28,005 nt of DNA from Promethearchaeota archaeon (lineage in GTDB: Archaea > Asgardarchaeota > Lokiarchaeia > Sigyniarchaeales > SOKP01), in contig JAEOTA010000077.1 in assembly GCA_016840085.1 (NCBI GenBank), positions 1 to 28,005 of the forward strand, written 5' to 3'. Under the pieces are notes generated by a model that did not search any database, was not told where the DNA came from, and saw nothing but the letters and a program-made list of their open reading frames with translations. The stretch's first letter is position 1. The number at the start of each line of letters is the position of its first letter. The position numbers were made by a program, and so were the translations under genes. Shown one piece after another: positions 7,255 through 26,527 of this stretch.

Positions 7255-8964
7255 ATGACTGTTCAAGGGATGACTGTAAATGAATTTTATATAGTATTAT
7301 TTAAGATTTTATTATTGATAATAATTTTTTATCTTGGAATTAAGCTATTTGCATTTTATTTAAAAAGAAAAAAATGGGACGCTCCATACATCAATGCTTT
7401 AATTTTGATTATTCCTTGGTTTATAATAGATTTGAATATTGGAATTTTGTTTTCTCTATATTATGCAGAAAATATTTTTATTGAAATATTACTTATCGCT
7501 ATTAAAATTATAGTAGGAGTTCTCTTTATAGCTATTTTTTATAGAAAAAACTTAATTAGATCAATCCTATATATTACCTTTATTCAAGCTATTTTATTTG
7601 GAATTTTATTATCATTAGAAGGTATTCTTTTTCTCTTCAAATTACCTGAGTTTAATATAAAATATAGTGAAGGCTCAGTATTATTATATATTATCTTTTT
7701 TATTGTTATTATGAGTATAACTATTTTTTACTCATATTGGGGACACAAAATCAATTTTGTGGCTCAAAAAAATGAAATTGCTTTATTTAGTACTATTCCT
7801 GGAACTCTATACTTAAATTATATATTTATTACGCAAGTTGAAAATTTCTTCTCCAGAGGATTTTCTAGCTTTTTAATTGCAATATTACTTTCGATTATTA
7901 CCTCGTTTATAACAAAAAAAATATCCTATAAAAATATTTCACTTAAAAAATTAAGAAAATTAACTATTCACGAAAAAGACCAAGATCTTTTAAGAATTAA
8001 AGATTTAAAAGTTTATTATCCTCTTCTTGGTGGAGTTCTAAAAAGACAAATTGGTTCAGTGAAAGCTGTTGATGGTATCTCTATCAGTATAAAAACGGGA
8101 GAAACTGTAGGATTAGTAGGAGAAAGTGGTTGTGGTAAAACTACAGTTGCGAACGCTATATTAGGTTTGGGTCCGAAAGAAGCAGGAGATATCATATTTC
8201 ATGGTAAACCTATGCCAAAATATTATTCTACAGAACTAAGACACAAAATTCAAATGGTTTTTCAAGATCCCGATGCTTCTTTAAATCCAAGAATGAAAAT
8301 AGTTGATATAATTGCAGATCCTCTTAAAAATCTAATGGGAATAACAAAAAAAGATGAAATTAGACGTCATGTTTTAAAATTGATAGAACAAGTCGCTTTA
8401 AAACGAGAACATATGGATCGTTTTCCACACGAATTTTCAGGAGGACAGAAACAGAGAATAGTAATTGCAAGAGCACTTGCAAGTAATCCTGAATTAATTA
8501 TTCTAGATGAACCTACTTCGGCGCTTGATGTTTCAGTTCAAGCTCAAATACTTAACATTTTAAAACGTCTGCAAAAAACTTATAATTTTGGATTTCTCTT
8601 TATCACCCATAATTTAGCTGTTGTAAATCATATTGCTGACCGTGTAGCTGTTATGTATTTAGGGAAAATTGTTGAAATTGGTGATACAGATCAAATTTTT
8701 TTTAATCCCTCTCATCCTTATACTCAAGCTTTACTCGCATCCAGAACTGAAATTGATACTGGCCCAGAAATTAGATTCGTCCTTAAAGGAGAGGTTCCTA
8801 GTCCAATTAATCCTCCTTCAGGGTGTTACTTTAATCCTAGATGTTCTTCTGACACTAGAACTCCCGAATGTGAATATAAAGTACCTCATAAGATAACTAT
8901 TGAAGAAGGACACTATATCTGGTGTATTAATCCTCCAGTTTCAAAAAAAATAGTGAATAATTAA
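7255..8964 (+). CDS. dppF: Dpp/Opp ABC ATPase (F-type) fused to an N-terminal multi-pass membrane domain
   Basis: VKAVDG, GESGCGKTT, FSGGQKQR, LDEPTSALD, HPYT, GCYFNPRC; the first ~220 aa contain about 6-7 hydrophobic segments. Confidence 0.87.
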   Translation: MTVQGMTVNEFYIVLFKILLLIIIFYLGIKLFAFYLKRKKWDAPYINALILIIPWFIIDLNIGILFSLYYAENIFIEILLIAIKIIVGVLFIAIFYRKNLIRSILYITFIQAILFGILLSLEGILFLFKLPEFNIKYSEGSVLLYIIFFIVIMSITIFYSYWGHKINFVAQKNEIALFSTIPGTLYLNYIFITQVENFFSRGFSSFLIAILLSIITSFITKKISYKNISLKKLRKLTIHEKDQDLLRIKDLKVYYPLLGGVLKRQIGSVKAVDGISISIKTGETVGLVGESGCGKTTVANAILGLGPKEAGDIIFHGKPMPKYYSTELRHKIQMVFQDPDASLNPRMKIVDIIADPLKNLMGITKKDEIRRHVLKLIEQVALKREHMDRFPHEFSGGQKQRIVIARALASNPELIILDEPTSALDVSVQAQILNILKRLQKTYNFGFLFITHNLAVVNHIADRVAVMYLGKIVEIGDTDQIFFNPSHPYTQALLASRTEIDTGPEIRFVLKGEVPSPINPPSGCYFNPRCSSDTRTPECEYKVPHKITIEEGHYIWCINPPVSKKIVNN

Positions 8965-11542: not shown

Positions 11543-12963
11543 TTACTAATTCTTTTTTCTCTAAAAATCTATAGTTCCAACATTGCTACAAGAGTATTAT
11601 CTCTACAATAAATAAAAAGTTACAATTTAGATGAAATTTTATACTAAATTAGATTTTTATTTTATCCTTTATGGTTAAATTGTATTAAAAGTTATGAAAT
11701 ATATAAATAATTTTTCTGATACTGAAAACAATTATGAATGAATTACAAGGCATTCCTGCTTTATTATATTCAATATTTTGGTAAACTCGTGAATTAGTAT
11801 TTTTAAAATTAATTTTAGATGATTTGAATATTAATTTAGTAAAAGTAATAGTATTCTTTAAATATTATAAACCTGGAGCTTAAATCAAATTAAATGGGGA
11901 AAAAGGAGACTACTTTGTTTGACGAGTTGATGAAATTTATAATCTAGCCCCAAATTATAATTCTTTAATTCAAACCTCCATGCTAAAATATTTCTATAAA
12001 AAAGAAGGAAGGTTTTCAAGAGGCCACGGTTATTTTACTCATAAATTAATATATCATTATAGTTTTGAGGAGTAAAATCAAAGATTATTTCCGTATGGAT
12101 CGAATAAGTTATGTTTTGATAAACTAAAGGTATACTTTGATTATAATCATATAATAATATATCATTTCTGTATTTAATTTAGCACCTAGATTATAACTTC
12201 CTTCCGTAAGAGCAAAAGGAACCAAGAATAAACTTATAATAAAGGATTGCAATACAATATTTAGCCTTTTTTTATTTTTCAATAATCTTATCATCAAAAT
12301 CTCTTAGATTATTTCTTTATATTAGTTTAAGATAATATATATTAGAAAAACAATCATTAATTTTTCTATAATCAGTTTCAAAGGAAGTTAATATCTAAAT
12401 CCTATTGAGTTGAATCTTTTTCTATTAAATTTTAATTCTAACCATCTATTTGAATAAATTATTTTTCTTTTTTTACTTCCAATAGAAATTTACCTTAAGA
12501 TTTATAAGAGAAAAGTGGTAATATTTATATATGAACATAAAATATCTATCTCCACTTTCAGATTTGAAAGCTGAGTTGAAACCACTTTTCTCTAACGAAT
12601 ATATGTTAGCATTTTTTAAAAAGTTTTGTGATGCTATCAAATCTAGGACGTGGGGATTTAAAAAGGCTAAAAATGCAAGATATGAGGCTGAAGACTTCCT
12701 TAGAGTCTTTTTTTATTCGTGCGACGTGAAAAGCTACATGCTTGAATTCGAGAACTTGGTTATTATCATGATGATATGTTTAGGGATTAACCAAACCACC
12801 AAGAAATCGACTTCGAGATGGACGAATGTGACTACCCGAAGGTGCACTGCGGGTAACGGCAGTGTGCTAAGCTTTGGGGACAATGTACTGACAGAGAAGA
12901 CTACACTTCTGCTGCAGGCTAGCCAAGGTTCTTATGGTAAATGAAAGTGAACTCGTGTCTAAA

Positions 12964-12983
12964 CCCCGTAAAAAGACTCGGGG
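12964..12983 (+). other. Intron EBS2 stem-loop
   Basis: Stem CCCCG/CGGGG; AAAAAGACTC (12970-12979) is the exact reverse complement of exon GAGTCTTTTT (12703-12712). Confidence 0.85.
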
Positions 12984-13027
12984 CGAAATGTAGTGATACG
13001 CCTTGCCAAAATGGCAATGCTGACAGT

Positions 13028-13052
13028 AGACGATATTGAATAATTATCGTCT
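13028..13052 (+). other. Intron EBS1 stem-loop
   Basis: Stem AGACGATA/TATCGTCT, loop TTGAATAAT; GAATAA (13038-13043) is complementary to IBS1 TTATTC (12713-12718). Confidence 0.9.
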
Positions 13053-13378
13053 TTCCATCCATTGTTCAGCCGGGGGAGAGCGAGTACCTAAGGAACTGCT
13101 TAAAGTCAAGCATGTGGAACACGGTAAACCCGATAAGTCCCATACATGGAGAAATTTCCATGGAATGGTATCCCGACCGTAAGGAAGGGGGAAGGCTTAG
13201 CGGGTAGAGGAACCAAGAGAAAGCGAATACCAATTTGTAATGAATTGGATAGGGGCTACTATAATGAAAGAATAATTTGTAGTAGAGGATACCCGACCTG
13301 AAAGGGTGCTGACTTCGAAGGTGGTCGAGACTGAGAAAGCACTCTGAAGGAACTCTTAACTATAAGAGGAGTTAGACG

Positions 13379-14839
13379 ATGCAAAGCATTGAACAAATCT
13401 ATAGGCATAACGACTGGTGGGACGAGATTAATTGGTCCCAGATAGAACGTGATGTAAGACGACTTCAGGGTAGGATCTTCAGAGTATCCAAGGAAGGTGA
13501 TAATAAAAGAGTAGATAACCTCATGAAACTTCTGGTAAGGTCTGAAAAGGCGAAATTATTCGCTATTTATATAATTACACAGAAGAATAAAGGTAAAGCT
13601 ACTCCCGGAATAGATGGAAAGGTTTATTTGACGTCAAGAGAACGAATGGAGTTAAGTAAAAAAGAATTTGATTATAGGACAGATAGATTTCAGCCTATAT
13701 TACGGAAATACATACCAAAGACTCAAGAGAATTGGAAAGCAAGGATCTATAGTTCTAAAAAGCGTAGATACGATAAGGCAGAGATGAGACCTTTAGGGAT
13801 AATGACAATCAAAGATAGGGTAATGACAACGATTATTTCATTTGCTCTTACAGCAAAATGGGAAGCATTATTTGAACCGAATGTCATGGGATTCCGCCCG
13901 GGCAGATGTGCACAAGATGCAATACAACGGATATACTTAGAATTAATTAGAGGTGAGAAAATTATTTTAGACGCAGATATTAATAAATTCTTTGATAATA
14001 TCAAACATACTGCAATTTTGAATAGGGTAAATGTATTCCGCAAGGCTCTATATCGATGTCTAAACGCGGGAATCATAGAAAAGGGAAAGAGAATTAAGAC
14101 CGTAAAAGGTGTTGTTCAAGGAAGTCCTATTAGTCCCATTTTAGCTAATATAGCGTTAAATGGGATGCAAGAGGTTCTTGAAAAAGATATCTATGTTATA
14201 ACCTATGCGGATGACCTAATCATAATTGCTCCAACTGTAGCTGCAATGAAACGGATGGTACCTAAGTTGGTGAAATTTCTTAGGGAAAGAGATTTATATT
14301 TGAAACGAGAGAAGACGAGAATTACTACTAAGAAAGAGGGTTTTAATTTCTTAGGGTTTAGGATTGAGCAACCGCGAATGAAGCTGTACGTTAAACCTCA
14401 GAAAGAAAAAGTTAAGAAATTTCTTAACCATGTTAGAGAGATAATCTGGTCTAATAAACAAATAGAACAGAGAAAACTAATAGCCAAATTGAATCCCGTT
14501 ATTAGAGGCTGGGCAATGTATTATAGATATTCTGATGCGAATAAAGCGTTTAACTGGGTAGATCATGAAATTAATGGAATAATTTGGGAATGGGCTCTGA
14601 GAAGACATAGAAATAAAGGAAAATGGTGGATATACGATAAATATTTTGATACAACAGGAATGGATAAATGGATTTTTAAGGACGCAAGAACAGGTTATAC
14701 ATTATATAAAGCGGGTAAGGTTCAGAGATTAAAATATGACTTTTTAGTAAAGGATCTTTCTCCATTTAACCCCGATCCCATTGTAAAGGAGATATGGAGG
14801 AAGAAACGATACCAAGAAGTCAGACATACAATGATATAG
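13379..14839 (+). CDS. ltrA: Group II intron reverse transcriptase/maturase (no HNH endonuclease domain)
   Basis: RT0/RVT_N (WDEINW...RLQGRI...KGKATPGIDG), RPLGI, GFRPGR, LDADI..FFD, QGSPISP, YADD, FNFLGF, thumb/X LNPVIRGWAMYY; GAGGAG SD; ends without Cys/His En motifs. Confidence 0.96.
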   Translation: MQSIEQIYRHNDWWDEINWSQIERDVRRLQGRIFRVSKEGDNKRVDNLMKLLVRSEKAKLFAIYIITQKNKGKATPGIDGKVYLTSRERMELSKKEFDYRTDRFQPILRKYIPKTQENWKARIYSSKKRRYDKAEMRPLGIMTIKDRVMTTIISFALTAKWEALFEPNVMGFRPGRCAQDAIQRIYLELIRGEKIILDADINKFFDNIKHTAILNRVNVFRKALYRCLNAGIIEKGKRIKTVKGVVQGSPISPILANIALNGMQEVLEKDIYVITYADDLIIIAPTVAAMKRMVPKLVKFLRERDLYLKREKTRITTKKEGFNFLGFRIEQPRMKLYVKPQKEKVKKFLNHVREIIWSNKQIEQRKLIAKLNPVIRGWAMYYRYSDANKAFNWVDHEINGIIWEWALRRHRNKGKWWIYDKYFDTTGMDKWIFKDARTGYTLYKAGKVQRLKYDFLVKDLSPFNPDPIVKEIWRKKRYQEVRHTMI

Positions 14840-16187
14840 TTAAACCATCCATTAAGAGGTAAATATCCGGATGATTGATTATTATCACCTTGGCTCAAGT
14901 ATTCAGGAAACGGTGACGTGGAACAAAGAAAGAGCACGCGGCGACGCGATTGGAACTCTCGGCTTGAGCCACGTGCGGGGAAACTCGCACGCGTGGTTCT
15001 TAGAGGGGAAAGGATCAGTAATGATCCCGACCTACTCGACCGAAATAACAGGAAGGTCTATAGGAAGTGCCAGCGAAAGGCTGATGAAAGAAAAAAGCGA
15101 GAAATTCCGCACCAAACGGACGTGAACACATTTTTACGCCTAATTGGACTTAAAAAGGCAAGAAATTTATTACGCAAATGTTTGGATTATCAATTAAAAG
15201 AAGCTTTATATTTAGAACTTATTTCAAAGAAAGTGAACGTCTTAATTGACTTTACAGAACATTCTTATTATGGAAAGCGGGACGATAAAATGATTAAAAG
15301 AACAAATAGGGGTAAGGGAACAAAAAAAATGCGCCATTACTTAGGATTTTCGATTTTATCCCGAGGTATTCACCTTTATGCCGGACTGGAACACATCGCA
15401 AAAGGGCAACCAAAAGTACCCGTAATTATTAAATTTCTTGAGCATTTGATTGAGTTGGGATTTGAGTTAAATTATGTAATGATGGATAGAGAATTTTACA
15501 ATGCTGAACTTTTACAAGAAATAAAAGGGCTGAAAGGAAATATATTAATGCCTGCCAAAGCGTATAAAAAAATTACTAAAATTATTGAAGAATATTTAAA
15601 CGGTACGGGGAAAAGAGTAAGAAAATATACCTTTTCAAGCGCTCCTGGAAAAGAATTTCAATTCTTTCAAAATGTTTATTTGATAATTAAGGCAAAAAAA
15701 GGGCACACCCTTTTAAGCGTTAAACGAGCCTTTCAGAAAGGGAAATTAACCTTAAAGGATGAAGGAAATTAATTTATGCCATTATGACGACCCAAAAACC
15801 GAGGGGGCAATCAAGTTCTTGGGCGTCCCGCACTTCGCGTTTTTATAAAAAAAGATGGTTTATAGAAACAGGATTTAGCGACTTAAATCGGATGGGTCAT
15901 CGATGGAAGTCAAAATACGGCAATACACGATATTTAGATATGCTGGTTCGCATGCTCCTTTACAATTCTTGGAAAATAAACCGGGCGTACCTTGAAAAAT
16001 GCCAAATAAAAGGCTATAAACCTCAGGCGTGGACACTTCGAGACAATCAGGATGCCTTGGAAGAGATCTTTTTTAAGGCATAAAAAAAATTACGCTTCAT
16101 TATTCGTTAAGGTGAGAATAATGTCGGATGAGGAAAAAGAAAAAATTATTAGAAAAAAAATACTTCATTAGATACTGATAATAGGAA

Positions 16188-16389
16188 AAAACTAATAATT
16201 TTGGATTAGTTTTTATAACACATAATTTAGTAGTTGTAAATCAAATGGCCTCCCTTAGAATACTATTTTAATCAAAGATGTTCTTCTGAAGCCAGGACCC
16301 CTAAATATGAATATGAGATACCTCATAAGATAACTATTGAAAAAAGACACTATATCTGGTGTGTTAATCCTCTAGTTTTAGTAAGTTGA
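16188..16389 (+). pseudogene. Remnant of a paralog of the F-type ABC ATPase 3' end
   Basis: KTNNFGLVFITHNLVVVNQMA matches KTYNFGFLFITHNLAVVNHIA (8575-8637); PPLEYYFNQRCSSEARTPKYEYEIPHKITIEKRHYIWCVNP matches 8812-8935. About 175 bp between the two blocks is deleted. Confidence 0.88.
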
Positions 16390-16626
16390 TTGAGAAATTG
16401 AAATAATTCATTTAATAAAAACATGGTTTAGTCACCTTTATATATTAATAGAGATTTATTATCTGGATTTAATATAACTTATATTTTAATTAATGTAATA
16501 ATATTAAGCATTATAAGCTATGAGATAATAAACTTGTGCTCCAAGCTTCTCTAAAAACTTAGATTACTGTGATTTGAATTAGTAATAATAGAATACTTTT
16601 AAATTAAGTAAATTCTTCTTTAATTT

Positions 16627-20507: not shown

Positions 20508-22034
20508 TTGGTAAATAGAAGCGTCTTTAATCTTCTCTAACGTATTAAATCCTGCATCCACAACTCGCTTAGTCAAATCTTCTCCAATGTTTTCAATATC
20601 AAATCCTGCAATAAATTTAGCTAAAGAAACTTCTTTAACTGCGAATAAGTTATCCAATGCTTTCTTCGCTGAGGTTTCTTTAACATCCTCGAATTGTGTC
20701 AAATCTGGAATCTTTAAATAATATAAATCAGCGATAGTTCGTATCGTTTCAGTATCAAATAACGGTCTCAGCATTAATTTTTCGCTAAAATGTTTTACTT
20801 CTAATTTTCTAATCCATTTGACGATTCGATGATACAGTTTCTTTGGACATTTATCATTTGGACAATATAAGCGTGTTCCCTCATTAACGAGATTTGTATT
20901 ACATACTTCACATATAGTGGGTATTGGAATCTCTTTAGCGTCTGATTGCGTATGAATCACTCGTTCGATTTTAGGAATCATATCTCCTCGTTTACTAATA
21001 AACACTTCGGAACCGATTTTTATACCAAGTTCTTCAATTAAGTTTGGATTGGCTAGACTTGCTCTGGAGACATTCATTCCCACTAATTGCGCAATATTAA
21101 CAATCGCGACAGGAGTATAAATCTATCCACTAATACTCCATTCCACATCACGTAATATTGTCTCAATTTGCTCTGCGTGGAATTTGAAGGCAATTTACTT
21201 CATAGGTTTACTCATTTTCATATCCCCAATGTCGATTTCCTTTCCCTTAATCACCAGCCCATCAATATACTATTCTAACGTATCTCGAAGGTTATTCATG
21301 ACATCTTCTCTAACATCAATAACTTCTTGAGGTGATTTAACAGTTTTTGTCCTGATTGTGTCAAATCCCTGTGCTTGTAACCATTTTAACTTTTGAATAT
21401 CATTGGAAAATTCAACCTCATCAATGGTGCTAATTGCATCATAGTATATAAGATTTAAATCTCCACTGCCCACACTATCTTTCCTTCTTACGATCCCCGC
21501 AGCAGCATTTCTACAATTTTGCTTGTCGGTATATTTCTTTTCAAATGTATCATGGAATAATAGAATTTCAGCTCTTACTGCACCAGTGAATGGAACTCCC
21601 AGCTTTGGCATAAACCATTTCATATTAACCACATTTGCGGATACATCATCACCTTTTACTCCATCTCCTCTTGTCACCACATATTGAAATATGCCATCTT
21701 CATATTGTAATTCAATGCTAATTCCATCAAGTTTAAACTGAATAAGAAATACCTTATAATTTCGTTTTCGTGCCCATTTTAAGAACTCTTTGGAATCAAC
21801 AACTTTATCCTGAGACGTCATTGGAATAATATGCTCTCGTTTGGTAAATAATTCCGAACTATCCACACCAATTTTAAATAAAATTGGATTGTCGGGATCA
21901 AGTTCTCGTAGCTCATCTTCTAAAGCGTCATATTTTGCATCGGAAATTTCGGGTTGCTCATTGTAATAGAGGTATCTGTGGCGTGTGATTTCCTCTACAA
22001 GATATTCAATTCTTTCTTGCTGTCTTTTGGTCAT
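20486..22034 (-). pseudogene. ligA: NAD-dependent DNA ligase, disrupted and lacking the C-terminus (BRCT)
   Basis: YY...PEISDAKYD, KLDG, TRGDG..G.DV, RNAAAG, IDGLVIK, IAFKF, OB fold RASLAN, GDMIP, C4 zinc finger, HhH. In-frame stops at 21270-21272 (TAG), 21195-21197 (TAA) and 21123-21125 (TAG); homology ends at QVDGF ~20487. Confidence 0.92.
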
Positions 22035-24486: not shown

Positions 24487-26527
24487 CCTGTCGCAAAAAC
24501 CATCCTAAATTTACGAAACTATAATAAATATAGTTAAAATAAAAGGAAAATAATCCTATAATTTCTTTTCTTAAATAAAATTAATTATTTTAAATTGTAA
24601 TAATTAAAAGCTTTAAAAGATTTAGGGGCGGGATGATAGATTCCTGGTGCCACTAATTTCTTATTGGATCAACCACTATAAAATATAATAGCAATGATAG
24701 AAGCAATAATAAATTATAAAAAAAAACTTAAATTTTCACCAAATAATACGACATAAATAAATTTATTTAAATGATCCGAAGACTTAAATTCGTAAAAGAT
24801 AATTGTATTATATAGATATGCCTACTTCTATATCAAAATATTTACCCCGCCATAATGGAACGACAAAAATAATAGATTTTACTGAGCGTCCCGTTTGTAA
24901 GTATTGCAATAAACCAATGAAAATAGTCAAAACATCAATATTAGGTCCTATTGTAGGATTGTTGGAGAATTACGATGTCTCAAGAGTGTATTATCGCTGT
25001 GGAAAAGCTTTATGTCCTGGCGAAGAGGAGGCACCCATATCTCCAGAAAACACGATTTATCCCTATAAAAGCGATTATGATTACGAAATTTACGCTAAAG
25101 TGGCTGAGTTAAGGTGGAGGGACAAGCATACTTATGAGGAAATCATCGAAGAGATGAACAAACAGTTTGCAATCATACTTAATTTAGCGACTATCGAGCG
25201 AATGGTAAAAGTATACGAGATTGGATGCTCGGAAAAATATAAGCCGGAAATTGTAGAAAAAATAAAGAAAAATGGCGGCGTGCTCTTGACAATAGATGGC
25301 ATGAGACCCTCACCAGGGAATCCAGGGTTGTATACGAGTTATGATTATTTCACTGGGCTTGCCATTCATTCCAAGAGGTTAACAAGCGAATCTACGATAA
25401 ATATTTCGAAATTTTTGGAAATTGCGAAAAAGCGAATTTCTAAAGAATTGGGTGTTCCTGTCATCGGAATCATGTCAGATGCCCTTCCCGCACAGAGAAA
25501 AGCGATAGAGAAGGTCTTTCCGGACATCCCGCATTGTTTATGTCATTATCATTTTTATAAATTCGTGTTTGATGCCCCCAAGAAGTTAGACAGCAATTTA
25601 ATGACTCAAACACGCAAATTTCTAAAGCAATTATATTATTTGAAAAAATCAACAATATTCGCTAATCAAGGAAAGTCTTGGGAGCCAAACTATTCATTTA
25701 CAAAAGAACTTATTGATGTCCTAAGGAGTCTGTCAAAATGGAAACCGCGACCGAAAGATCCGTATTTCGTCGGTCTCGAATTGTTTTCGCGCTTGACAGA
25801 CGTGCATTCCGTTTTAGCTTTATTCATTGAGGAATTAGAGGGTTTTAATGAACAATTCGAAGATGAATCAGTAATTAGAGATTTATTCTTAAAAATAACG
25901 GAGTATATTGAGTCTAAAAACGATATATTGGTAGAACTCAACATTATAAAGGGATATCTCGCTGAGATCAAAACAATTTTAGATGATAATAGTGCTACCG
26001 CAGAACAATCTCTTGATAACTTAGAACAATATTCTAAAAACCTTGACGAGCGGCTTACATGCGAAAATTGTTTTGAAGTAGAAAAAGAATTCATTGGAGC
26101 CTTGCAGAAATATTTGAAAAACAAGGGAGAATTGTTATTTAACTACAAGCGAATCGATGGTGCTCCACGCACAAATAATTCACATGAATTAGCTTTCAAG
26201 CAATTAAAGCATTTTTTACGACGTATTATAGGTTTCCAAATCGCAAATCATTATCTTTTATCGCATGGAGAACGTATTGTATTTGTAATTCCCAATGAGA
26301 GTTTTGAGGGCATTTTGGAAATTTTGCATGAAATGGACCATCAAAAAGCTCGAGAGTTAATTCGTTCAGAACGTACTTCTAGGGATAGTATTCGTTATAT
26401 CATTCACGATCCGGCAAAGTGGGCTTCAAAAATAGAAGAATTAAAAAAAAAGTTCAAGGATTTATTAAAGTCACTTTTGATGAAAATTTAAGAAAAAAAA
26501 TCAAAATTTGATATAACTTAGAACGGG
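24487..26527 (+). mobile_element. Putative IS carrying the 24818-26491 transposase
   Basis: Only weak inverted similarity (CCTGTCGCAA... versus reverse complement CCCGTTCTAA...); no target duplication seen; boundaries tentative. Confidence 0.4.
24818..26491 (+). CDS. DDE transposase of the CxxH (IS256/Mutator-like) clan, apparently intact
   Basis: N-terminal C4 zinc finger (CKYC...RCGKALC), HTH-like segment, LTIDG, IMSDALPAQRKAI..VFP..PH.LCHYH, RTNNSHE..F. ATG 24818 is preferred to TTG 24803. Confidence 0.85.
   Translation: MPTSISKYLPRHNGTTKIIDFTERPVCKYCNKPMKIVKTSILGPIVGLLENYDVSRVYYRCGKALCPGEEEAPISPENTIYPYKSDYDYEIYAKVAELRWRDKHTYEEIIEEMNKQFAIILNLATIERMVKVYEIGCSEKYKPEIVEKIKKNGGVLLTIDGMRPSPGNPGLYTSYDYFTGLAIHSKRLTSESTINISKFLEIAKKRISKELGVPVIGIMSDALPAQRKAIEKVFPDIPHCLCHYHFYKFVFDAPKKLDSNLMTQTRKFLKQLYYLKKSTIFANQGKSWEPNYSFTKELIDVLRSLSKWKPRPKDPYFVGLELFSRLTDVHSVLALFIEELEGFNEQFEDESVIRDLFLKITEYIESKNDILVELNIIKGYLAEIKTILDDNSATAEQSLDNLEQYSKNLDERLTCENCFEVEKEFIGALQKYLKNKGELLFNYKRIDGAPRTNNSHELAFKQLKHFLRRIIGFQIANHYLLSHGERIVFVIPNESFEGILEILHEMDHQKARELIRSERTSRDSIRYIIHDPAKWASKIEELKKKFKDLLKSLLMKI

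Follow-up and report, generated by a model that had tools for sequence, protein, structure and literature searches.

The window, by which we mean the whole stretch of DNA analyzed here, comprises 28,005 nucleotides (nt) of contig C74 from G000, the metagenome-assembled genome (MAG) of a Promethearchaeota archaeon (in our labels, L denotes loci, G genomes, and C contigs). At positions 12373–16177 it carries an insertion sequence (IS) whose transposase gene is interrupted by a group II intron that codes for a reverse transcriptase (RT); IS and intron together form a composite of 3.8 kb. Exon-binding sites (EBS) in the intron pair with intron-binding sites (IBS) in the flanking exons. The features of the composite are listed below, with the intron domains numbered DI–DVI and the open reading frame abbreviated ORF.

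12368–12372, + strand: left target-site duplication ATAAT, 5 bp, identical to 16178–16182
12373–12388, + strand: left terminal inverted repeat CAGTTTCAAAGGAAGT, matching the right end when that is reverse-complemented; L060 and L009 have these ends too
12531–12718, + strand: transposase exon 1, 188 nt from the ATG, consisting of 62 codons plus the TC of a Ser codon
12703–12712, + strand: IBS2, GAGTCTTTTT, the complement of 12970–12979; its final TT occupies the position of the usual spacer and in this case pairs as well
12713–12718, + strand: IBS1, TTATTC, the complement of 13038–13043
12719–15040, + strand: group II intron of IIB type, 2322 nt, with the RT ORF probably in DIV; Rfam matches
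12970–12979, + strand: EBS2, AAAAAGACTC, in the loop of the hairpin 12964–12983
13038–13043, + strand: EBS1, GAATAA, in the loop of the hairpin 13030–13051
13078, + strand: EBS3, G, pairing with IBS3 (C15041)
13379–14839, + strand: intron-encoded RT/maturase, an open ORF of 486 amino acids (aa) with RVT_N, RVT_1, and GIIM domains
14966–14999, + strand: DV, with AGC triad and 2-nt bulge; matched by RF00029, with compensatory changes over 15 introns
15003–15037, + strand: DVI, with bulged branch-point A15034, from the RF00029 alignment; invariant bulged A and covarying stems
15041–16083, + strand: transposase exon 2, with two deletions and weak DDE_Tnp_1 matches
16162–16177, + strand: right terminal inverted repeat ACTTCATTAGATACTG, 16 nt, pairing with the left end
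16178–16182, + strand: right target-site duplication ATAAT, matching the left one

The intron, its reverse transcriptase, and the host insertion sequence

The intron begins with GTGCG (12719–12723) and ends with ...CTCGAC (...CTACTCGAC) at 15040, so that the conserved group II ends (5' GUGYG and 3' AY) are both present, and about 30 homologous introns have the same ends. The Rfam model of domains V and VI (RF00029) matched 14964–15040 with 65.8 bits (E 4.6e-11; gathering score 40 bits), and RF02012 (D1-D4-7) matched 12811–12899 with 39.7 bits (gathering score 34 bits), the latter model being aligned only in part. When 15 introns were aligned over DV and DVI, compensatory changes were observed at 18 of the 26 base pairs. 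No damage is seen in the AGC triad, the DV bulge, the branch-point A, the GTGCG end, or any of the three EBS-IBS pairings, and the three EBS elements of DI could be placed by covariation. The GC content of the intron is 39%, compared with 30% for the contig. As judged from its sequence, the element is a complete group II intron with intact catalytic RNA parts, which bears out an earlier reading of the sequence made without database searches (the sequence-only reading) that a complete intron with DV, DVI, and an open RT occupies 12719–15040.

The 486-aa ORF matched the Pfam domains RVT_N (93 bits), RVT_1 (132 bits), and GIIM (70 bits), all over the cut-offs, and its YADD motif lies at 14204–14215. 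About 60 residues follow the maturase domain, and a domain search of the ORF gave no match to an HNH endonuclease domain. The closest solved structure is 6ME0 chain C (254 bits), followed at a distance by a IIC RT (120 bits) and LtrA (74 bits); we take the intron-encoded protein (IEP) of 6ME0 to be that of TeI4h from Thermosynechococcus elongatus. The nearest plasmid-borne RTs, from Rhizobium, Azospirillum, Escherichia coli, and Sinorhizobium plasmids, are equidistant from the window RT at ~37–38% identity. The ratio of nonsynonymous to synonymous substitution rates (dN/dS) was 0.13–0.16 in comparisons with five relatives, and ~0.15 even against the 91%-identical RT of the metagenome locus L061; the RT has evolved under purifying selection.

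The intron divides a Ser codon of the transposase gene (TC/C, the slash marking the insertion point). It lies in the sense strand, and predicted splicing would rejoin the codon and restore the frame at the junction; expression of the transposase would therefore depend on splicing. The spliced junction reads FFYS/EITGRSI, and its counterparts are FFFSEIIGRSI in an intact IS paralogue on contig C50 of the same genome and FFYSEITGKSI in an intron-less copy from a genome of the same genus; the split Ser codon, which the sequence-only reading had also described, was upheld. Exon 1 is 62% identical to residues 1–63 of the C50 paralogue, and exon 2 is 67% identical to it in protein. Because this paralogue scored 99.6 bits (E 1.8e-28) against the NCBIfam ISH3 family transposase model, under the curated cut-off of 225 bits, we call the IS "ISH3-like." The Pfam model DDE_Tnp_1 matched the exon 2 pieces of the window at or under threshold. 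The C50-type IS is probably repeated in G000, because its first 57 nt sit on two contig ends.

The intron-less copy (L060, in genome G177) is otherwise intact and 94.8% identical to the window IS, with 92.8% nt identity in exon 1. Relative to L060, the window transposase has exactly two frame lesions, a 49-nt deletion at ~15082–85 and a 1-nt deletion at ~15761, and since these disrupt its frame we regard this IS copy as dead; both lesions had been noticed in the sequence-only reading. The IS in L009 has the same ends and is flanked by a 5-bp duplication (AGTAT/AGTAT), and the flanks of the L060 copy are better fitted by a 6-bp duplication.

Target recognition and mode of insertion

EBS2 and EBS1 together are exactly complementary to 12703–12718, giving 16 contiguous pairs out of 16, and the target across the insertion point (site 1) reads GAGTCTTTTTTTATTC/CGAAAT. 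We compared the guides of 18 introns with a visible 5' junction, drawn from RT relatives that were gathered from GTDB genomes and metagenome contigs. The EBS1-IBS1 pairing with the intron's own exon was perfect (6/6) in 15 of these introns, and EBS1 plus EBS2 matched the own 5' exon at 13/13 positions in 11 and at 12/13 or better in 14. When EBS sequences were combined with exons other than their own, only 2.3% of combinations reached 13/13, and pairs from the same site are among them. One intron, L014, matched its own 5' exon at only 10/13 positions; either it is at a non-cognate site or it has been rearranged.

A scan of 16 introns for the partner of the first 3'-exon base identified the column of G13078, which holds the Watson-Crick complement of that base in all 16; the runner-up column in DI did so in 8. 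G13078 and C15041 are the EBS3-IBS3 pair, which is the IIB mode of recognizing the 3' exon (PMC4424553). We also considered δ-δ' recognition, as in IIA introns, and rejected it: the copies that we inspected all have T as the base 5' of EBS1, although they differ in the first base of the 3' exon, so that these two positions do not covary. Because all three guides covary with the exons over 16–18 relatives, the window intron shows IIB-type recognition and sits at its cognate homing site.

The 16-nt pairing had been singled out in the sequence-only reading as longer than usual. Its exactness stood, and a special extension did not. The family pattern is an IBS2 of 7–8 nt, a 2-nt spacer, and an IBS1 of 6 nt, and the window pairing is contiguous because the conserved AA of the GUAA in the EBS2 loop faces the TT spacer of a T-rich target. 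We therefore rejected the idea of an extended guide as an adaptation.

Intron-free copies of the target were found in related genomes. The exact 22-mer of the empty site is present in five of them, namely G177, G189, and G195 (all of the same genus as the window) and G232 and G241, and variants with one or two mismatches occur in several more. G177, G189, and G195 gave no RT match at E <= 1e-20. In L061 this site is occupied by an intron 92% identical to that of the window, and the IS copy there is broken and 5'-truncated. The 3' exons of the L061 and window IS copies are only 73% identical (Jukes-Cantor [JC] distance 0.34), whereas the introns are separated by a JC distance of 0.07–0.09. The divergence of the intron is thus uncoupled from that of the IS, which indicates that one intron lineage has inserted at site 1 of two diverged IS copies. 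Guide covariation, the empty sites, and the L061 intron all support the earlier proposal that this is a true homing site.

We conclude that the window very probably contains a mobile group IIB intron lacking the endonuclease (En) domain, a member of a family resident in Loki-type Asgard archaea, which entered a conserved site of an ISH3-like IS by RNA-guided retrohoming. EBS2, EBS1, and EBS3 of the spliced intron would guide it to complementary DNA on both sides of the insertion point, and the ribonucleoprotein would reverse-splice into transiently single-stranded target DNA, as proposed by analogy with En-less introns such as RmInt1. Because the RT has no nuclease domain, the nascent strand at a replication fork would serve as primer, again as in RmInt1. 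The IS copy has since been killed by the 49-nt and 1-nt deletions, and the intron is now probably a stranded passenger of a decaying IS, still predicted to be competent for splicing.

Several points weigh against this interpretation. The priming step is taken over from bacterial En-less introns, and the score against the NCBIfam equivalog model for group II RT/maturases (TIGR04416) was 265 bits, under its 300-bit cut-off. Both site-1 copies that we found, in the window and in L061, sit in broken IS copies. With the host IS dead and just one copy of the intron in G000 (by DNA search, RF00029, and tblastn), present-day activity is unproven.

The intron could instead be an inactive relic that looks intact and can neither splice nor move, as is the case for most prokaryotic copies. 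Its solitary position in a dead IS is what such a relic would show, and G000 has no target left: the sole other IS relative, of the C50 type, lacks the target sequence. Most bacterial intron copies are inactivated (PMC4424553), and Asgard genomes mostly contain only one or two copies (bioRxiv 10.1101/2024.12.10.627823). Set against this are the uninterrupted ORF with its YADD motif, the low dN/dS even against the closest RT, and the intact ribozyme parts and guide pairings described above. We regard a relic as unlikely. The C50 paralogue was itself considered as a spare target in G000 and discarded, as the equivalent sequence differs at many IBS positions.

It is also possible, although we think it somewhat improbable, that the intron entered the IS elsewhere and that the composite then transposed to its present position as a unit, the intron hitchhiking on an IS that died later. 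The clean 5-bp ATAAT duplication and both inverted repeats flank the composite as a whole, and G000 offers neither an empty target nor a second intron copy. Intron-bearing copies could still make transposase, since the transposase of L009 is intact once spliced (233 + 1048 nt, 426 aa). The duplication, however, proves only that the IS transposed, not that the intron was on board at the time. The 92% identity of the introns as against the 73% identity of the IS copies in the window and L061 shows an intron lineage moving independently of the IS, and the near-identical IS copy in a genome of the same genus is intron-less.

The archaeal host and the wider intron family

The host genome is assigned on sequence grounds to the Asgard archaea (Promethearchaeota), as had been suspected, and is of Loki type. 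Two loci with related introns, L005 and L009, belong to NCBI "Promethearchaeota archaeon" MAG records and are sequence-identical to loci of G145 and G241, genomes in the same GTDB family as G000. Of 400 genomes examined from the phylum, 29 gave RT matches (E <= 1e-20), typically one to four per genome, and 26 of the 29, including G000, belong to the window's order.

The intron would not be archaeal if the contig were of bacterial or other foreign origin and had entered the Asgard MAG through faulty binning. The estimated contamination of the MAG is 7.6%, and one relative of the intron, L007, lies on a 3.5-kb contig labeled Patescibacteria. The GC content of the contig (30.0%), however, is close to that of the genome (29.5%), its transporter genes share 70–75% nt identity with genomes of the same genus, the same IS occurs at 93–95% identity in G177 of that genus, and all other close relatives of the intron in GTDB genomes fall in the same family. 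Contamination is thus very improbable. The L007 contig (3514 nt) is identical to the metagenome locus L075, and in it a member of the intron family interrupts an ORF in phase; mis-binned Asgard DNA is a more likely origin for it than a bacterial host.

Related introns, with RT identities of 62–69%, occupy other sites of the same IS family. Site 2, 44 nt downstream of site 1, is occupied in L009 (the G241 locus), L067, and L072, and site 3, equivalent to 15830/31 of the window, is occupied in L076; the introns at both sites carry EBS sequences that match their targets. A provisional site ("site 1b") at ~15063/64 is occupied in L070, whose contig includes just the 3' junction; this may alternatively be a site-1 insertion followed by a 23-nt deletion in the exon. 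The proposal that the IS family provides a renewable target consequently held for the intron family, with three firm sites and one provisional site, and failed for G000, with its single intron copy, dead IS, and a paralogue without the target. Silencing of the IS by the intron, or hitchhiking on it, both of which the sequence-only reading had suggested, remain conjectural. A tree of the RTs (a quick IQ-TREE search under LG+G4, with SH-aLRT support only) placed the window and L061 together, nested with support of 85–93 in a clade with L062, L063, L005, L064, and L065.

The 49-nt deletion in the window IS begins 1–3 nt from the site-2 insertion point (window 15082–15085; L060 1561–1612; L009 3341/3342; L072 517/518). 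L072 carries a site-2 intron, and the 5' part of its IS, comprising exon 1 plus the initial 43 nt of exon 2, is ~93% identical to that of the window. The deletion could be a scar left by imprecise loss of a second intron, or its position could be a coincidence, for which an after-the-fact estimate of chance is ~1%.

Two other kinds of target were observed. The 3' exons of L062, L063, L005, L064, and L065 share a start that matches, from ...TTTTGGTAG/TGTA... onward, a stem-closed element of ~120 nt with two hairpins that contains CCUCCUCC (matches at L005 1834–1930, L062 1890–1990, and L064 1–40 and 2285–2380); the 5' junction is visible only in L064. At least six copies of this element are present in G000 (L086–L091, on C22 at ~1760–1890 and on C60, C53, C71, C50, and C19), its closing stem covaries between copies, and it had no Rfam match up to E=1. 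The second kind is related introns, in which we found nested copies (L006/L074, L016, L073, and L080). In L006 (507–6220, the same as L074), an ORF-less intron of 995 nt lies inside DI of an RT-encoding intron, and the other nested copies are at two further positions of related introns. In most nested copies the EBS match the intron-derived exon (13/13 for L016, L080, and the inner intron of L006). We infer that IS elements, other introns, and the multicopy 120-nt element are harmless landing sites for the intron family. A further relative, L085, has apparently lost most of its RT gene.

Downstream of ~nt 600, RT included, the introns of the metagenome loci L066 (108–2404) and L067 (38–2320) are 99–100% identical up to their 3' ends, but they are only 73–81% identical in the first ~500 nt (DI), where they have different EBS1, EBS2, and EBS3, and they have different targets. 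Either the targeting domain has been exchanged between introns in nature, or the assembly is chimeric. A second Lokiarchaeial subfamily (L018, L019, L021, and L023, in G167, G250, G227, and G232) is of D1-D4-7 type with ~45% RT identity. The insertion sites of three members (L019, L021, and L023) are AT-rich and resemble one another, with the pattern GAGTAT..TTAAAG.AAAAA/, and two members (L020 and L021) are in the window's own genus.

We tentatively suggest, with rather more doubt than conviction, that a single intron lineage is undergoing active radiation among Asgard archaea of Loki type. Its RNA guide would be altered by point mutations in EBS1, EBS2, and EBS3, and perhaps also by introns trading the targeting DI in its entirety, and in this way the lineage would have colonized the 120-nt element, other introns, and three or four places within a single ISH3-like IS family. 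If this suggestion is correct, intact copies such as L009 would need splicing in order to express their transposase, and the population, if live, would be a natural and tractable system in which to study how introns proliferate in the archaea closest to eukaryotes.

We note some neighboring genes. Immediately to the right of the IS, in 16186–16560, are fragments with homology to the C-terminal portion of the oligopeptide-transporter ATPase that the contig itself encodes (7255–8964); they look like the remnant of a truncated paralogue beside the IS insertion. The window also encodes a 253-aa protein (21270–22034) that consists of the adenylation domain of an NAD-dependent DNA ligase alone, and a MULE/IS256-like transposase ORF of 562 aa (24803–26491). 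Beside the intact IS paralogue on C50, L004 encodes on the minus strand (1463–2512) a RadA/Rad51-like ATPase of 349 aa, in which an apparent helix-hairpin-helix region is C-terminal and not N-terminal, as seen by eye in the translation.

Comparison with known systems

[quoted passage not shown] Loki- and Heimdall-type Asgard introns were reported in 2017 (PMC5709842), several Asgard IEP types in 2023 (PMC9887622), and Asgard introns with intact RNA and protein parts, usually in one or two copies per genome, in 2024 (bioRxiv 10.1101/2024.12.10.627823). Like the window intron, these introns, from genomes of Lokiarchaeia and of other Asgard archaea, combine an RT/maturase with a ribozyme that Rfam models detect. 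As we read those papers, they offer a catalogue of IEP types and a phylogeny, to which our analysis of insertion sites and EBS adds detail. A literature search found no paper that joins Lokiarchaeia with retrohoming and transposase targets.

The novelty for archaea, and the direct relevance to the origin of the spliceosome, that the sequence-only reading had attached to the element could not be maintained, given these reports and an element that is an ordinary bacterial-type IIB retroelement. The Asgard introns act like ordinary bacterial retroelements, inserting into IS elements, other introns, and a small repeated element and changing their target specificity, and this behavior counts against regarding their presence as particularly informative about how the spliceosome arose. 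Concrete substrates for splicing and mobility tests of Asgard introns are available in the site-1 target and in the L009 transposase, which is intact and would depend on splicing.

RmInt1 of Sinorhizobium meliloti is likewise an En-less, IIB-type intron whose natural site is in an IS transposase gene in sense orientation, so that transposase expression depends on splicing there as in the window (PMC1802570, PMC4238363, PMC8914252). It homes into ISRm2011-2 (PMC1802570), splicing has been proposed to limit the spread of this host IS (PMC4238363), and its retrohoming is primed at replication forks (PMC8914252). Both introns recognize their targets through EBS1, EBS2, and EBS3, and in both cases empty and occupied IS copies coexist in related genomes. 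The host of RmInt1, however, is a bacterium and its IS is IS630-like, as opposed to an Asgard archaeon and an ISH3-like IS in the present case; RmInt1 is present in many copies, compared with the single copy in G000. The window IEP (486 aa) is only ~37% identical to RTs of Sinorhizobium plasmids, which may or may not be those of RmInt1.

In T. elongatus, target specificity has diverged, and IS elements and other introns are preferred targets (PMC2882425). The TeI3/TeI4 introns (CL/IIB1) show several specificities through diverged EBS, insertion into IS elements and as twintrons, and ORF-less derivatives (PMC2882425), all of which are found among the relatives described here. They differ from our family, which typically has one to four RT matches per genome and no En domain. 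Nested group II introns have also been described in Methanosarcina acetivorans (Dai and Zimmerly 2003, summarized in PMC4424553), where archaeal IIB introns without an En domain home into related introns, as the nested copies reported above appear to have done. That host belongs to another archaeal phylum, and the window copy lies in the coding region of an IS and not in another intron.

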